Assembly (NCBI GenBank): GCA_963776275.1 | Contig: CAVZMI010000010.1 | Span: forward strand, 1-62,482 | DNA length: 62,482 bases | Reading direction: 5' to 3' | From: Ignavibacteriota bacterium | GTDB lineage: Bacteria > Bacteroidota > Ignavibacteria > UBA10030 > CAVZMI01 | Shown here: piece after piece, positions 8,137-42,100 of the stretch | Layout of the letters: every line of letters begins with the position of its first letter | How positions within the stretch are numbered: the stretch's first letter is position 1 | Made by a program: the position numbers and the translations under genes | The notes under the pieces: model-generated | Database searches by the model: none | What the model saw: only the letters and a program-made list of their open reading frames with translations | What the model was told of the DNA's origin: nothing

Positions 8137-9422
8137 GGAAATCTCCACTTTTTATTATCTTCACTACAATTTTTGTAGATCTGGTCGGATTTGGAATTGT
8201 CCTGCCAGTGCTACCGCTGTATGCCCGGACCTTCGGTGCGAGTCCGCTCATTATCGGAGTGATCGTTGCATCATTCTCATTGATGCAATTTTTTTTCATG
8301 CCGGTATGGGGCAGAGTCTCTGACCGTATCGGCCGCCGTCCGGTTATCCTATGGAGTCTTGTCGCATCGGCAATCTCATACCTGATATACGGATTTGCTC
8401 ATTCATTAGTCGTCCTTATCATTTCTCGTGTTTTTGCCGGAATTGCAGGTGCGACTGTCTCGACCGCACAGGCATACATTGCCGATGTGACGACATCCGA
8501 AAATCGGGCGAAGGGAATGGGGTTGATCGGTGCAGCATTTGGTCTTGGATTTATCTTTGGTCCTGTCATCGGCGGTATTCTCAGTGAACCGGGGCTTATA
8601 CTCAGGCACATCTCAAGTATACTTCACAACGGAGTGTTCGAAGGATTTGCACGATGGCTCGATGGTCAAAGCGCTGTAATTGGTCTCTCCGCTGAAGGCG
8701 GAGTGAGGTTTGATATTCCTGCATTATTTGCGGCGGCACTATGTCTTGGAAATGCGATCCTGGCTTATTTCCGTTTGCCCGAATCTCTTTCACCGGAACA
8801 TCGAAGCGTCAAGGCGATGCGGACTGTTTCCCGAAAAGTGCTTTTCCATGCTCTTTTCAAACCGTATCTCGGTGTTCTTCTGCTCCTGTTTTTTATCACA
8901 ACGTTTTCCTATGCGAATACTTATGGCACGCTTCCACTGTTTACCGGACAGGCCATGCAGCTCTCGGCATCGGAGAACGGATATCTCTTTGCATTCATGG
9001 GATTGATCACAGCAGTAATGCAGGGAGGGTTTATAGGAAGACTGACGAAAGTATTTGGGGAACGCCGTCTTCTTTTAATCGGTTGTATGTCTATGGTGGT
9101 CGGTTTTACCCTTCTTGCTTTTTCATCGACCACAGTGATGCTGGCAGGTGCGGTAATATTTTTAAGCTCTGGAACGGGTATGTGCAATCCGATCATTCCA
9201 AGTCTCATAACACAGGAGAGTGATCCGCGTGAGCATGGATCGATGCTTGGAATTTCACAGTCGTTTTCAAGTCTCGGACGGGTTCTCGGTCCCACGTGGG
9301 GAGGATTGACCTACGACAGGCTTGGTCATCAATGGCCATTTTTTACCGCCGCTATGTTCATGACAGTCGCTTCATTCCTGGGTTTCAGAATTCTACATCA
9401 GCGTAGAATAAAAGTCGAGTGA
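8133..9422 (+). CDS. MFS transporter, TetA/DHA1-like
   Basis: Motif A GRVSDRIGRRP, AYIAD, about 12 hydrophobic segments; ATGA overlap with the upstream stop. Confidence 0.9.
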   Translation: MRKSPLFIIFTTIFVDLVGFGIVLPVLPLYARTFGASPLIIGVIVASFSLMQFFFMPVWGRVSDRIGRRPVILWSLVASAISYLIYGFAHSLVVLIISRVFAGIAGATVSTAQAYIADVTTSENRAKGMGLIGAAFGLGFIFGPVIGGILSEPGLILRHISSILHNGVFEGFARWLDGQSAVIGLSAEGGVRFDIPALFAAALCLGNAILAYFRLPESLSPEHRSVKAMRTVSRKVLFHALFKPYLGVLLLLFFITTFSYANTYGTLPLFTGQAMQLSASENGYLFAFMGLITAVMQGGFIGRLTKVFGERRLLLIGCMSMVVGFTLLAFSSTTVMLAGAVIFLSSGTGMCNPIIPSLITQESDPREHGSMLGISQSFSSLGRVLGPTWGGLTYDRLGHQWPFFTAAMFMTVASFLGFRILHQRRIKVE

Positions 9423-34720: not shown

Positions 34721-34829
34721 ATACTTGATTCCCTTCTATGAATTATCCAACTTAAAGAAATGTCTAGGAATATTCAAGGATTAAATGGCCAGTAATTTTT
34801 CTCCTTGTAACTTCGCCTCAACCTCGACC

Positions 34830-34960
34830 CTTGCCCTGCCCTAAAGTTTATCCTGAGCTTGTCGAAGTGGACTACTTCCGCCAAAAAGATGGCGGACAGG
34901 TCGTCGAGCGACCCGCCGCAGTCCGCCGGTGGCGGACGGTAGGCGGGGAGGCGAAGGGTT
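34830..34960. repeat. Nested REP-like palindrome cluster
   Basis: CCTGAGCTTGTCGAAG (34852), TCCGCCA..TGGCGGA (34877-34896), and TCCGCCGGTGGCGGA (34922-34936) inside CCCGCC/GGCGGG. Confidence 0.75.
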
Positions 34961-34964
34961 GACC

Positions 34965-37013
34965 TCAATCGGCTTCTTGAGGCGCCGCAAACTTCCGTAC
35001 CGCCAGACTCATGCCAAGCAGAAACCAGATCATGGTCATAGACTCCTGATCGCCGAAGTTCCATTCCCCCAGTCCGTTGAAAAGAAAAGCGATCGTGCTG
35101 CCGGCGGCCCCGAGTACAATAGTGGAAAGTACATTTTCTTGTCGTATCGACCGGAATATTTGTATCTCGGTAAGAAGCGTTTTTCCGAGGAGGTAAAGAA
35201 CTGCCAGTGTACCGACAATACCGAAAATGACAAGAAACTGAATGTAATTGTTATGCAAATGGCCGAAATTTTCCTTCTCGTATGGCTGCTTGAATTGGGC
35301 ATAAGTGGTGGCGACATCCATATCGCCGATTCCGAACAGGGGATGCGCCCGGAAAATTCTCAGCCCGGTTTCCCACATCCGGAGACGCTGATAGTTCGTC
35401 GGATAATCGACGCTGGCGACACTTAACAGCCTGTTCCGTTGGCGGTCGACCAGGTAGATGTTTTCACCGTTCACACTTACTTTCCTCGGCACATATTCTA
35501 ATGGAATTTTTTGGCAGACCTTGAAAGAAGTACACTCTTCGGCAGAAGATATAACAAGGCCGGGAATTCCTGCAAGAACGATTGTTCTGCCATTTGTTGT
35601 GCAATCGATGATTCCTCCAAGGCTGTCATGTTTTTCGAGAAGAGTCACGGTTGTCGAATCGATTCGATAGCGCTCGAGTGTTTGTACAGTACCGATATAG
35701 AGATTTTTATTAACGGTAAACGCTGAAGCAACCGGTGAATTCAAATGGCTGCGGAATATTTCGAGATCGGGAATTCCTTGAGAGAGCGAGTAAAGGCTGA
35801 CAGTATCATCGAACGAGGAGAGTGTCAAATAATGTTCACTCACATACATATTTTGAAAACCGGCAGCCCTGGGACAGCGATAAATATCATCCAGTCTCAT
35901 AGGATCCCGGTAGACAGTGACACCGCTGTCCTTGTCGAGCGTATAGAGCAAACCATTGGCTGTAACGGTAGAACGGAGTAGTCCCGGTGACGAAAATACA
36001 TTTTCAATGACGAACTCCGAAGGTCCTTTTCTGTACAGCATCACCAACCGTGAATCGATTAATGAAGCGACATAGATGTTGTCTCGCCACTGAAGACATG
36101 AAACAACGGGGGCAGGCAGATGGACGTTGGAACGGCTGCCATTCTTTCCGATGAGGAGGATACCTTCTTTGTAATCACTGATCAGTACGACGCTGTCGGT
36201 GGGCATCACCTGATATACGGTTCCCTTTGTAGAAATGATATCGCTCTGACAGATCCCCCTGTCGGAATTCCGGTAAATGTACACATCGCTTTTTTCCTTC
36301 ACCAAAAAAGCGCCTCCGGCAACAACAACGATGATGGCAGCAAGTGCGGCCCATTTTTTCTTGATTGTCGAGACGGCAATCATGCCTGCAGCTGATCCAA
36401 GCCAGGCAGCACGCGTATAACTTGCGATCAAAGCGACAACCGAGACGAGCAACGCAATGGTAATCAACCAGCGGTGTAGGCGGCTTATCTTTTCATCGAC
36501 AGCAAAGGCAAAGAGGATTACCACCAGCATCGCCAGTAAACCCCCGGCAGTCATTACATGGCTGAAAGGGGAGGGCCCGTTGACGTGCAGCATATAAAGG
36601 TTCTGGACAAGGTGTTCGCGGGCAATGATGAGATATGCGACGGCTGTCAGTACCGCTCCAACTAGATAAATCTTAAAAATTACTTTTACAGTCTCGATAT
36701 CCTCAGCGGCATACAAGAGAGTATAAATGATAGGGATCAGCATAATTCGTTTCGCCATGATTATTGCCGATGAAGTGGGTTGAGTGGAGAATATAGTAGA
36801 CAGAGCCTCGGCGGCAATAAAAAAAAGGAATGCCCATTCCATGCCTGTTTTTTTGAATCGTTTCTGACTGAATGTAGCGCGAATAACAGCGAGGATCAGA
36901 GCGCCGAAATAGCCGATTTGATTGAGGAAGATCGAATTTGTCAGAGTAACAGCAAAAAAACAAATCGAATAGAAAATTAATTTATCTAAAATCTTTATTT
37001 TTGATAACGACAA
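34965..37013 (-). CDS. O-antigen ligase-family membrane protein with a large inserted soluble domain
   Basis: SYTRAAWLG, RLRMW..HPLFGIG and HLHNNYIQ motifs; long beta-rich insert between TM blocks. Confidence 0.8.
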   Translation of the reverse strand: MSLSKIKILDKLIFYSICFFAVTLTNSIFLNQIGYFGALILAVIRATFSQKRFKKTGMEWAFLFFIAAEALSTIFSTQPTSSAIIMAKRIMLIPIIYTLLYAAEDIETVKVIFKIYLVGAVLTAVAYLIIAREHLVQNLYMLHVNGPSPFSHVMTAGGLLAMLVVILFAFAVDEKISRLHRWLITIALLVSVVALIASYTRAAWLGSAAGMIAVSTIKKKWAALAAIIVVVAGGAFLVKEKSDVYIYRNSDRGICQSDIISTKGTVYQVMPTDSVVLISDYKEGILLIGKNGSRSNVHLPAPVVSCLQWRDNIYVASLIDSRLVMLYRKGPSEFVIENVFSSPGLLRSTVTANGLLYTLDKDSGVTVYRDPMRLDDIYRCPRAAGFQNMYVSEHYLTLSSFDDTVSLYSLSQGIPDLEIFRSHLNSPVASAFTVNKNLYIGTVQTLERYRIDSTTVTLLEKHDSLGGIIDCTTNGRTIVLAGIPGLVISSAEECTSFKVCQKIPLEYVPRKVSVNGENIYLVDRQRNRLLSVASVDYPTNYQRLRMWETGLRIFRAHPLFGIGDMDVATTYAQFKQPYEKENFGHLHNNYIQFLVIFGIVGTLAVLYLLGKTLLTEIQIFRSIRQENVLSTIVLGAAGSTIAFLFNGLGEWNFGDQESMTMIWFLLGMSLAVRKFAAPQEAD

Positions 37014-40473: not shown

Positions 40474-40552
40474 CGCGGGGTGGAGCCCCGACAAACAACG
40501 TCGGGATTTCGCCCTACCCAGACGGAGTCTGGGCAGGACTCAACAATTGGTA
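40474..40552 (+). pseudogene. 5' fragment of tRNA-fMet interrupted by a 58-nt double-hairpin insert
   Basis: CGCGGGGTGGAG + insert + CAATTGGTA, both flanks identical to nt 1-21 of the tRNA at 40586. Confidence 0.75.
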
Positions 40553-40585: not shown

Positions 40586-40658
<73 letters not shown>

Positions 40659-40664
40659 CAAAAG

Positions 40665-40692
40665 AAGCCTCCCAGGTAAGGGGGGTTTTTTT
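40665..40692 (+). terminator. Terminator-like hairpin abutting the GIY-YIG start codon (repeated in each unit)
   Basis: AAGCCTCCC-AGGTAA-GGGGGGTTT stem, T7, then ATG. Confidence 0.6.
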
Positions 40693-40956
40693 ATGCCATT
40701 TTATACATATGTTCTAATCAGTGATGAAGGATATCACTACACTGGTCACACAGCTGATCTTGATCTCAGAGTCGAACGCCATTTCATGAAAACGACGCAC
40801 TATACTAAGAAGGGGAAAAACTGGCGTATTATTTATTCGAAAGAATTTTCAACAAGGGCAGAGGCCATGAAACATGAGAAGTGGCTCAAGAGTGGTGTCG
40901 GTAGAGAATGGGCGAAAGCAAACATCGCGGGGTGGAGTCCGCCGAAGGCGGAGTAG
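40693..40956 (+). CDS. Stand-alone GIY-YIG nuclease, copy 1
   Basis: YTYVL...YTG with Y6, Y16, G18, R26, H30 and E62 in the expected catalytic positions. Confidence 0.9.
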   Translation: MPFYTYVLISDEGYHYTGHTADLDLRVERHFMKTTHYTKKGKNWRIIYSKEFSTRAEAMKHEKWLKSGVGREWAKANIAGWSPPKAE

Positions 40957-41007
40957 CTCGTTGGGCTCATAACCCAAAGGTTGCAGGTTCAAGTCCTGCC
41001 CCCGCTA
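40926..41007 (+). pseudogene. tRNA-fMet copy 2 with a 15-nt hairpin in the D-loop
   Basis: CAATTG replaced by TCCGCCGAAGGCGGA (40938-40952); remainder identical to copy 1. Confidence 0.8.
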
Positions 41008-41041
41008 CAAAAGAAGCCTCCCAGGTAAGGGGGGTTTTTTT

Positions 41042-41305
41042 ATGCCATTTTATACATATGTTCTAATCAGTGATGAAGGATATCACTACACTGGTCACAC
41101 AGCTGATCTTGATCTCAGAGTCGAACGCCATTTCATGAAAACGACGCACTATACTAAGAAGGGGAAAAACTGGCGTATTATTTATTCGAAAGAATTTTCA
41201 ACAAGGGCAGAGGCCATGAAACATGAGAAGTGGCTCAAGAGTGGTGTCGGTAGAGAATGGGCGAAAGCAAACATCGCGGGGTGGAGTCCGCCGAAGGCGG
41301 AGTAG
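41042..41305 (+). CDS. GIY-YIG nuclease, copy 2
   Basis: Identical protein to copy 1. Confidence 0.9.
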   Translation: MPFYTYVLISDEGYHYTGHTADLDLRVERHFMKTTHYTKKGKNWRIIYSKEFSTRAEAMKHEKWLKSGVGREWAKANIAGWSPPKAE

Positions 41306-41356
41306 CTCGTTGGGCTCATAACCCAAAGGTTGCAGGTTCAAGTCCTGCCCCCGCTA
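41275..41356 (+). pseudogene. tRNA-fMet copy 3 with D-loop hairpin
   Basis: Identical to copy 2. Confidence 0.8.
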
Positions 41357-41390
41357 CAAAAGAAGCCTCCCAGGTAAGGGGGGTTTTTTT

Positions 41391-41654
41391 ATGCCATTTT
41401 ATACATATGTTCTAATCAGTGATGAAGGATATCACTACACTGGTCACACAGCTGATCTTGATCTCAGAGTCGAACGCCATTTCATGAAAACGACGCACTA
41501 TACTAAGAAGGGGAAAAACTGGCGTATTATTTATTCGAAAGAATTTTCAACAAGGGCAGAGGCCATGAAACATGAGAAGTGGCTCAAGAGTGGTGTCGGT
41601 AGAGAATGGGCGAAAGCAAACATCGCGGGGTGGTGTCCGCCGAAGGCGGAGTAG
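41391..41654 (+). CDS. GIY-YIG nuclease, copy 3 (S82C variant)
   Basis: Ends AGWCPPKAE. Confidence 0.9.
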   Translation: MPFYTYVLISDEGYHYTGHTADLDLRVERHFMKTTHYTKKGKNWRIIYSKEFSTRAEAMKHEKWLKSGVGREWAKANIAGWCPPKAE

Positions 41655-41705
41655 CTCGTTGGGCTCATAACCCAAAGGTTGCAGGTTCAAGTCCTGCCCC
41701 CGCTA
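41624..41705 (+). pseudogene. tRNA-fMet copy 4 with D-loop hairpin and A11T
   Basis: GGTG instead of GGAG at 41634 breaks a D-stem pair. Confidence 0.8.
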
Positions 41706-41739
41706 CAAAAGAAGCCTCCCAGGTAAGGGGGGTTTTTTT

Positions 41740-42003
41740 ATGCCATTTTATACATATGTTCTAATCAGTGATGAAGGATATCACTACACTGGTCACACAG
41801 CTGATCTTGATCTCAGAGTCGAACGCCATTTCATGAAAACGACGCACTATACTAAGAAGGGGAAAAACTGGCGTATTATTTATTCGAAAGAATTTTCAAC
41901 AAGGGCAGAGGCCATGAAACATGAGAAGTGGCTCAAGAGTGGTGTCGGTAGAGAATGGGCGAAAGCAAACATCGCGGGGTGGTGTCCGCCGAAGGCGGAG
42001 TAG
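41740..42003 (+). CDS. GIY-YIG nuclease, copy 4 (S82C variant)
   Basis: Identical to copy 3. Confidence 0.9.
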   Translation: MPFYTYVLISDEGYHYTGHTADLDLRVERHFMKTTHYTKKGKNWRIIYSKEFSTRAEAMKHEKWLKSGVGREWAKANIAGWCPPKAE

Positions 42004-42064
42004 CTCGTTGGGCTCATAACCCAAAGGTTGTATCCGCCGTAGGCGGAAAGTCCTGCCCCCGCTA
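41973..42064 (+). pseudogene. tRNA-fMet copy 5 with hairpins in both the D-loop and the T-arm
   Basis: TCCGCCGAAGGCGGA at 41985-41999 and TCCGCCGTAGGCGGA at 42033-42047 replacing GGTTC. Confidence 0.85.
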
Positions 42065-42070
42065 CAAACA

Positions 42071-42100
42071 GCCTCCTTGTATAGGAGGCCTTTTTATTTT
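42071..42100 (+). terminator. Intrinsic terminator closing the array
   Basis: GCCTCCT/AGGAGGC stem followed by CTTTTTATTTT. Confidence 0.8.

Follow-up and report, generated by a model that had tools for sequence, protein, structure and literature searches.

The window analysed here, i.e. the whole 62,482-nt stretch of contig CAVZMI010000010.1 (assembly GCA_963776275.1) from an Ignavibacteriota bacterium (genome code G000), contains an initiator-type tRNA-Met gene followed by four tandem copies of a small gene for a GIY-YIG nuclease. Each nuclease gene runs into a displaced copy of the same tRNA, in which a 15-nt palindrome stands in the place of the D-arm. We propose that the region is probably a tandemly amplified, selfish cassette of the homing type that parasitises the initiator-tRNA gene, acting by a mechanism that we infer. 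The hairpins within the tRNA copies had been picked out in a first-pass annotation of the window, and have now been followed through a comparative set of 201 genomes of the same order (coded G000, G001 and so on). G001 is a sister genome, ~95% identical to G000 and collinear with it across the window.

The intact initiator-type tRNA-Met(CAT) gene lies at 40586..40659, and like all the features of the locus described below it is on the forward strand. It was called by ARAGORN, which was used for tRNA genes throughout, and scored 66.5 bits with the Rfam tRNA model RF00005, for which the threshold is 29 bits. Among the three CAT tRNAs of the assembly it alone has the GGG/CCC anticodon stem. Analysis of the tandem structure with Tandem Repeats Finder gave a period of 349 (4.1 copies, 99% matches), corresponding to four 349-bp units at 40604-40952, 40953-41301, 41302-41650 and 41651-41999. 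Each unit is composed, in order, of the 3′ part of the tRNA, a terminator-like hairpin with a T-run, the GIY-YIG open reading frame (ORF), positions 1-12 of the tRNA and the palindrome TCCGCC-GAA-GGCGGA. The ORF, of 87 amino acids (aa) and assigned by Pfam PF01541, is found at 40693..40956, 41042..41305, 41391..41654 and 41740..42003. The second copy is identical to the first; the third contains S81C, via A>T at 41634, and the fourth is the same as the third.

The D-arm palindromes are exact 15-mers at 40938-40952, 41287-41301, 41636-41650 and 41985-41999. The first displaced tRNA copy (40926..41008, 83 nt) has the hairpin in place of the D-arm, a native T-arm and a downstream flank of the cassette type, and the second and third copies (41275-41357 and 41624-41706) are built in the same way. 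The last displaced copy (41973..42065; RNA fold z -5.1) has palindromes in both the D-arm and the T-arm, and then enters the resident downstream flank. Its T-arm palindrome is TCCGCC-GTA-GGCGGA at 42033..42047, with the junction GGCGGA|AAGTCC. Behind this copy is the resident terminator-like hairpin GCCTCCT..AGGAGGC with its T-run (42071..42098), which is conserved in G001.

Comparison with the intact tRNA-Met defines what has been exchanged. The D-arm hairpin takes the place of CAATTG (C13-G18), and the flanking sequences GGAG and GTAGCTCG are retained. In the last copy GCAGGTTC|AAGTCC has become GTA plus the hairpin|AAGTCC, i.e. CAGGTTC has been converted to TA plus 15 nt; equivalently GGTTC has been replaced and one C changed to T. 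No target duplication was found at either the D-arm or the T-arm palindrome in this comparison. The first-pass annotation had placed hairpins in these tRNA loop regions without target duplication, and the exact 15-mers found there bear this out. Allowing one mismatch or none, the window contains six matches to the palindrome where 0.01 are expected, and none of 100 shuffled sequences reached six. A copy with one mismatch (TCCGCTGAAGGCGGA) is located at 8688-8702, distant from the array. As a DNA hairpin the 15-mer has a calculated stability of -6.7 kcal/mol (z -3.6), and in the predicted fold of the displaced copies the acceptor, anticodon and T arms are kept, with the palindrome standing where the D-arm was.

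Two conventional explanations of the inserted sequences were rejected. A tRNA intron, of either the group I or the bulge-helix-bulge type, is not consistent with the replacement of six tRNA residues, the presence of an intact gene lacking any insert, or the absence of an Rfam intron match; between 39500 and 43000 Rfam returned only the tRNA and two sub-threshold leader matches. Insertion of a transposon or insertion sequence was discarded because the D-arm, the T-arm and a clean 46-nt filled/empty site that is described below all lack a target-site duplication.

The four 349-bp units are identical save for A>T at 41634 and 41983, which is common to units 3 and 4. The units vary at this one base, and their four D-arm hairpins go back to one event that has been multiplied by tandem duplication. 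They had previously been taken for four separate D-loop events, and that they are one inherited feature is the main correction to the earlier description. In units 1-3 the D-arm palindrome is joined to a native T-arm and to the flank that lies downstream of the intact gene; a T-arm palindrome and the outer flank are found in the last copy only. This layout is exactly what would result if the intact tRNA and the displaced copy recombined unequally. G001 has one unit only, comprising the same upstream relic (see below), the intact tRNA, a nuclease gene that is 93% identical and one displaced copy, to which the last displaced copy of G000 is orthologous. A contig from the public run X1 has the same single-unit form. 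The internal unit junction is supported by a 160-nt contig from the public run X2 that is 100% identical to 40932-41091, although this contig fits several units and may derive from the source sample. The nuclease gene copies are freshly duplicated, and the amplification is recent.

The empty/filled comparison suggested in the first-pass annotation was made between G075 and G057, whose flanks are 95% identical. In G075 the tRNA is bare, and immediately behind it comes the flank found in G057 behind the displaced copy. Taken together, the filled site of G057 and the empty site of G075 define the cassette as an insertion of 357 bp. Of the resident flanks, the upstream one has remained next to the working tRNA and the downstream one next to the displaced copy, and this arrangement implies that the tRNA 5′ piece and the palindrome are borne by the cassette. 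By this comparison the D-arm palindrome sits at the right-hand end of the cassette, between the cassette-borne tRNA 5′ piece and the body of the tRNA. G002 also has a bare tRNA.

A search of the 201 genomes with the junction pattern GCGGGGTGGAG-N7-37-GTAGCTCG found 17 places in 14 genomes. At 14 of these places (11 genomes) there is a palindrome at the D-arm junction; the remaining three, in three genomes, are ordinary longer D-loops or unrelated sequence. The identical GAA-loop 15-mer is found at the D-arm junction in at least four other genomes (G057, G122, G123 and G054), from three other families, where the orthologous 87-aa ORFs have 71-80% identity and end in ...WSPPKAE. Nonsynonymous divergence (pN) is 0.13-0.22 and synonymous divergence (pS) 0.75-0.96 for the six valid pairs, i.e. 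those in register among G000, G057, G122 and G054, with 22 other pairs left out; because synonymous divergence is saturated, the divergence is given as pN and pS only. Against this background the palindrome is invariant in all five genomes, third codon positions included. The last 11 sense codons and the TAG stop of the ORF come from the tRNA 5′ piece, the hairpin and the D-stem, giving the protein its tail ...NIAGWSPPKAE, and the final codons ATC GCG GGG TGG AGT CCG CCG AAG GCG GAG TAG are invariant in G000, G057, G122 and G123. G054 shares the sequence that starts at TGG AGT, takes in the hairpin and runs to TAG, and differs in the preceding three codons. In the codons just upstream of the invariant stretch the third positions vary freely. 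These comparisons indicate that the D-arm hairpin is an old, conserved and ancestral part of the GIY-YIG cassette. The first-pass annotation had raised the possibility of a fixed ancestral feature found nowhere else; the first part of this describes the D-arm hairpin, and the second does not hold, as the 15-mer family occurs at many other sites.

The T-arm palindrome has a different history. In G001 the GTA-loop palindrome and its T-arm junction are both identical to those of G000, and a different, 27-nt palindrome, TCCCGCTTCGCC-GGA-GGCGAAGCGGGA, occupies the D-arm junction. G001 also has two more palindromes, after G9 and after G26, making four in its displaced copy. The T-arm palindrome is therefore taken to be a separate event predating the G000/G001 split, in agreement with the earlier suggestion that it arose independently. 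The possibility that the GTA loop is a variant specific to the T-loop was rejected, since this is true for G000 and G001 only and the order-wide T-loop junction has many loops. We note that the T-stem is GCAGG/CCTGC in both copies of G000 (window 40634-40651 and 42048-42056) and GTAGG/CCTAC in both copies of G001 (locus L034, 1571-1590), i.e. the copies within each genome have evolved in concert.

Other palindromes occupy the same D-arm junction elsewhere in the order. These are TCCGTCCCA..TGGGACGGA in G003 and G038, TCCCGATAACGAC.. in G033, G038, G048 and G053, and TCCCGATGC.. in G099. The same stem is found with the loops ACA, GCA or AGA in G101 and G113, with TTC in G180 and with TTT in G026, and a second copy in G113 has a nested palindrome expansion at this junction. 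All of the D-arm junction palindromes begin TCC and finish GGA. The long examples of G001, G003 and G038 were each found in one copy only in the searched genomes, which rules out simple transposition as their origin.

Palindromes have also entered the remains of a tRNA on the upstream side of the array. The upstream relic (40474..40552) consists of tRNA-fMet positions 1-12 followed by two palindromes (CCCGAC..GTCGGG and CCCAGAC..GTCTGGG) and by positions 13-21 of the D-loop (CAATTGGTA). The palindromes have simply been added between G12 and C13, and no bases were lost. The same relic is present in G001, and G010 has the same layout with other palindromes.

The conservation of the hairpin might be ascribed to a role in RNA. 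The hairpin could disrupt the D-loop/T-loop elbow and so spare the 3′ end of the nuclease mRNA from RNase P and other tRNA enzymes, or it could stabilise or terminate that mRNA, leaving the DNA palindrome with no role of its own. The ORF does overlap the displaced tRNA by 31 nt and stops at the TAG of the D-stem, both hairpin sites delete elbow residues (G18, or those of the T-loop), synonymous positions in the hairpin are conserved, and the acceptor and T arms still fold. However, the same palindromes occur in 5′ relics lacking an ORF or T-arm, in a multicopy element that is not a tRNA and in a transposase gene (see below), and in G001 the tail and the hairpin differ though the nuclease is 93% identical. 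We therefore regard a purely RNA-level role as unlikely.

A second possibility is that the palindromes are functionless scars, left passively by repair in repeatedly broken, non-essential DNA. Their accumulation in displaced copies (up to four in G001), their nesting in one another and the unique sequences of the long ones would all be expected of scars. It is harder to see why a scar of 15 nt should be identical at the D-arm of five cassettes despite saturated synonymous divergence. Moreover, the two tRNA-homologous stretches on either side of the palindrome evolve in concert with the intact copy, and gene conversion would be expected to have removed it from such a setting. An origin purely as debris is thus considered quite unlikely. 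We note that persistence of the D-arm palindrome in such a position probably reflects selection acting on the element.

The 87-aa protein is a single GIY-YIG domain, matching PF01541 over residues 3-67 with 48.2 bits (E 1.4e-12; curated cut-off 22.6 bits). Its best matches in the PDB are the UPF0213 proteins 1zg2 and 1ywl, and a search of NCBIfam assigned the ORF to no family. There is no separate DNA-binding domain in the 87 aa, the tail being tRNA and hairpin DNA read in frame. The genome holds 10 loci with small GIY-YIG genes, and the paralogs were sorted by eye into group A, with the motif REKQIQxWS, and group B, with the tail motif EKxLKSGxGR, to which the window protein belongs. The two groups differ in their surroundings: an intact tRNA on the same strand lies within 400 bp of five of six group-B paralogs, compared with none of four in group A. 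Small GIY-YIG genes are present in 160 of the 201 genomes, often as pairs ~350 bp apart.

The 15-nt palindrome is a member of a dispersed family. In the G000 genome TCCGCCGNAGGCGGA has 19 exact sites, compared with none for the control, and 14 of these are outside the array. If any 3-nt loop is allowed there are 27 sites, making this the commonest perfect hairpin of 6 bp and a 3-nt loop in the genome; none appeared in a first-order Markov simulation. The TGCGCC hairpin is second commonest with 21 sites. Fifteen of the 27 hairpins are within 1.4 kb of five tRNA genes (Thr, fMet, Pro, Val and Asn). Displaced fragments of tRNA-Thr and tRNA-Pro contain a double palindrome, of 31 nt plus 15 nt, exactly between C56 and A57 of the T-loop. 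The corresponding junction GGCGGA|AARTCC was found order-wide at 23 places in 17 of 201 genomes, and nowhere for the control. The 15-mer family as a whole is present in 183 of 201 genomes, with 0 to 112 copies in each and 2071 in total. Its sites include the D-loop, position 26, the 3′ side of the anticodon loop, the T-loop and the interior of earlier palindromes. These positions, in or next to the loops of stem-loops, fit the proposal in the first-pass annotation of insertion at structured DNA. Rfam searches of four other hairpin loci gave no family at gathering score.

The clearest filled and empty sites are in an element of ~300 nt present in at least eight copies. One lies at G000 contig C6:30385-30740 (locus L003:1344-1699), with more on C31, C23, C15, C7 and C12. 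Its recognisable parts are a promoter-like TTGAC, an inverted repeat over a long range (GACAAAATCGC...GCGATTTTGTC) and a hairpin at the end; it matches no Rfam family at gathering score and has no conserved neighbouring ORF. In an alignment of eight paralogs, four have a 46-nt double palindrome between GTTTC and GATCGAGG and four are empty. The site resembles a T-loop and has no duplication, and one of the filled copies has a third palindrome nested within it.

Within the window itself a 24-nt family palindrome at 34879 is present in G000 and absent from G001. It lies in a cluster of GC palindromes (34800-34990) and is of the type TCCGCC..GGCGGACAGG, an end that is also found in the displaced tRNA of G001. 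Several further loci contain related sequences. The ORF of an IS110-like transposase (G000 C23:223056-223931) ends in the palindrome pair TCCGCC-TGA-GGCGGA and TGCGCC-TCT-GGCGCA, behind which the frame resumes. The segment 15830-15960 of the window is an indel-rich region of short GC-rich repeats (CCCTGAGC..TCGAAGGG), with four indels of 9-24 nt relative to G001. Behind tRNA-Val (G000 C23:121000-121950, loci L013-L017) there are duplicated downstream segments and a 34-bp tandem array of four units, each TCCGCCTCCGGCGGA plus CTCAGGGCCAGCCCTTCGA.

The mini-palindromes of the TCC...GGA type are an order-wide family that flanks GIY-YIG genes, not Y1-transposase genes. Counting GC-rich perfect hairpins within 600 bp of each class of gene, 11 of 20 near GIY-YIG genes are of this type (5 of 11 if the array is excluded), compared with none of 27 near Y1_Tnp genes; in the whole genome the proportion is 111 of 1379. 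Over the 201 genomes the number of 15-mer palindromes correlates with that of GIY-YIG matches (Spearman rho 0.51, uncorrected for relatedness). The median number of palindromes is two in genomes with no GIY-YIG match, six in those with at least one and 15 in those with at least five.

These counts bear directly on a third explanation, that the palindromes are REP-like elements moved by Y1 transposases of the RAYT or IS200 type and only incidentally close to GIY-YIG and tRNA genes. The genome has nine matches to the Y1 transposase (PF01797), several of the genes being flanked by palindromes, and REP/RAYT systems insert without target duplication. Yet the palindromes of the Y1 genes belong to families of their own, and in the comparison above the TCC..GGA type is found near GIY-YIG genes and not near Y1_Tnp genes, so that mobilisation by Y1 enzymes seems very unlikely. 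Note that the Y1 genes at G000 C27:39875-40700, C12:68150-69450 and C28:53400-54550 have their own palindromes and look like REP/RAYT pairs.

Finally, the idea that displaced copies are working tRNA-like RNAs (initiators with a variant D-arm, or decoys, the array raising their dose) is highly improbable, as are the tRNA-like RNAs suggested for copies 2 and 3 in the first-pass annotation: copies 1-3 do have intact acceptor, anticodon (CAT) and T arms and score 47.5 bits each with the Rfam tRNA model, above the threshold (20.9 bits for the last copy), but the alignment omits the D-arm and takes a hairpin arm as acceptor strand, ARAGORN calls none of the displaced copies and only the native gene, the copies overlap the end of the ORF, their layout is that expected of recombinants between intact and displaced tRNA, and the displaced copies of relatives are truncated or have up to four palindromes, which argues that there is no constraint on tRNA function.

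The closest parallel to the genetic arrangement is SegB of the T-even phages. The available parts of the published accounts describe this as a free-standing GIY-YIG homing endonuclease in a tRNA gene cluster (PMC2330249). In phage T6 SegB is reported to drive the tandem amplification of a 718-bp unit of tRNA-Tyr plus segB by homologous recombination, aided by microhomology that the tRNA's 5′ end shares with segB's 3′ end (PMC13096335). The cassette is similar in having a GIY-YIG gene among tRNA genes, where SegB spreads by break and repair and amplifies a unit of tRNA plus nuclease, and in the presence or absence of the nuclease gene at the same locus, a trait of the SegB type (G057 filled, G075 empty). 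Unlike SegB, a phage protein with a DNA-binding part, the nuclease described here is a single domain of 87 aa encoded on a bacterial chromosome. The cassette also duplicates its target tRNA and leaves a displaced copy bearing palindromes, neither of which features in the available portions of the SegB texts.

A precedent for a pairing of nuclease and hairpin is provided by Ssn (Chenal et al. 2025, PMC11893778). In the portion of that paper available to us Ssn is described as a hairpin-directed nuclease of single-stranded DNA, with a single GIY-YIG domain of ~90-100 aa, whose gene is flanked by GC-rich NTS/SRM hairpin repeats that are also dispersed in the genome. The window protein is likewise 87 aa with one domain, and a local palindrome family, TCCCGC..GCGGGA, shares the NTS core. 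Searching with the NTS motif found NTS-flanked GIY-YIG genes at 2 of 120 loci (L164 and L165), to whose proteins the group-A paralogs are related with E values down to 1e-13. A further GIY-YIG gene, before tRNA-Ser(gga) at G000 contig C37:20554-21137, has the same 27-nt palindrome TCCCGTCCCG-TTTACAT-CGGGACGGGA on both sides, and this layout of hairpin, gene and hairpin resembles NTS-ssnA-NTS. Unlike the elements described here, Ssn is presented without reference to tRNA, a term that does not occur in the available portion of the text (PMC11893778). No description of bacterial tRNA-linked GIY-YIG cassettes with palindromes was found in the literature, though the supplementary tables of the Ssn paper might list such homologs.

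Short palindromes lacking the usual signatures of transposons are familiar as REP/REPIN sequences, Rickettsia palindromic elements and cyanobacterial small dispersed repeats, and are sometimes located in genes or RNA genes. None of the REP, Rickettsia or cyanobacterial palindromes is tied to displaced tRNA copies. The double-hairpin elements of Allomyces, said to have been described by Paquin et al. in 2000, are reportedly GC-rich hairpin insertions in organelles that are grouped with the GC clusters of yeast mitochondria. In these families the known partner is either a Y1 transposase, as for REP/REPIN according to the parts of the source available (PMC3116915), or none, unlike here, where the local Y1 genes bear other palindromes. 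The mitochondrial GC clusters, as far as the available text describes them (GC42, PMC4478555), are similar to the present family in being tiny GC-rich hairpin insertions with variation concentrated in the loop, in merging and nesting, and in the proposed help of an endonuclease. They differ in being organellar and 30-80 nt in length, with an AG target duplication for GC42 and no context of tRNA copies (PMC4478555).

The probable course of events can be outlined as follows. The nuclease would break the DNA of the tRNA gene, probably when this is extruded as stem-loops, and repair from a cassette-bearing copy would spread the cassette, i.e. homing. The working tRNA cannot change, and so it would stay a target. 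Repeated breaks and recombination between the tRNA repeats might then generate tandem arrays, by analogy with SegB in phage T6. Palindromes would arise, or be renewed, in the loops of stem-loop DNA during cutting and repair. The occurrence of palindromes in or beside such loops, and inside older palindromes, points to single-stranded DNA extruded as stem-loops as the likely substrate. The D-arm palindrome may be the hairpin partner of the nuclease, as NTS is for Ssn, or it may plug the displaced copy against cutting, back-conversion and use as a tRNA, or it may be both plug and partner. Its role may be that of a recognition hairpin, a plug or a device acting at the level of RNA.

A broader proposal can be put forward tentatively, as a possibility that we would not yet favour. 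The TCC...GGA mini-palindromes, down to 15 nt in length, might be the cis partners of a distinct, tRNA-linked subfamily of single-domain GIY-YIG proteins with the EKxLKSGxGR motif. The enzyme would cut stem-loops, of cloverleaf or hairpin form, in single-stranded DNA, and repair would write or copy palindromes into the loops. Nuclease and hairpin would then form a mobile system not described before, one that rebuilds tRNA genes even as it overwrites them.

A number of observations weigh against these proposals. Each step of the mechanism, cleavage and homing included, is deduced from sequence, and the number of tandem units is known from one assembly alone. Since any target inside the tRNA is still present in the intact copy, a simple immunity conferred by a plug cannot explain how the working copy escapes. 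The long palindromes of G001, G003 and G038, being unique, have not been copied from a dispersed element and do not have to serve for recognition, and 12 of the 27 hairpins in the genome are distant from any called tRNA or GIY-YIG gene. The correlation between hairpins and GIY-YIG genes takes no account of relatedness and has exceptions in both directions: G011, G067 and G172 hold 11 to 34 hairpins with no GIY-YIG match to this query, and G042 has 19 GIY-YIG matches and no such hairpin. Nor does the resemblance to the Ssn family (cd10448) appear close. The published SRM motif is not enriched, with six hits in the genome compared with 15 in the reversed genome, and none of the 10 GIY-YIG loci has a hit at a distance of 1 kb or less. 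The window protein is 33% and 31% identical over 64 aa to those of L164 and L165 (E 7e-4 and 0.01), the weakest match of the 10 paralogs.

If the proposals are correct, essential tRNA genes of many uncultivated bacteria would be host to a minimal selfish element consisting of an 87-residue nuclease and a palindrome. Such an element would survive by rebuilding its target, leaving behind tRNA relics plugged by hairpins, and it could amplify in tandem. This would explain the common loci of a pseudo-tRNA plus a small hypothetical protein, and the dispersed GC hairpins, in metagenome-assembled genomes. The idea of a hairpin-directed GIY-YIG enzyme, as developed for Ssn, would be extended to a new subfamily with a natural structured target, and the family would become a source of very small, possibly structure-specific DNA nucleases to be tested.

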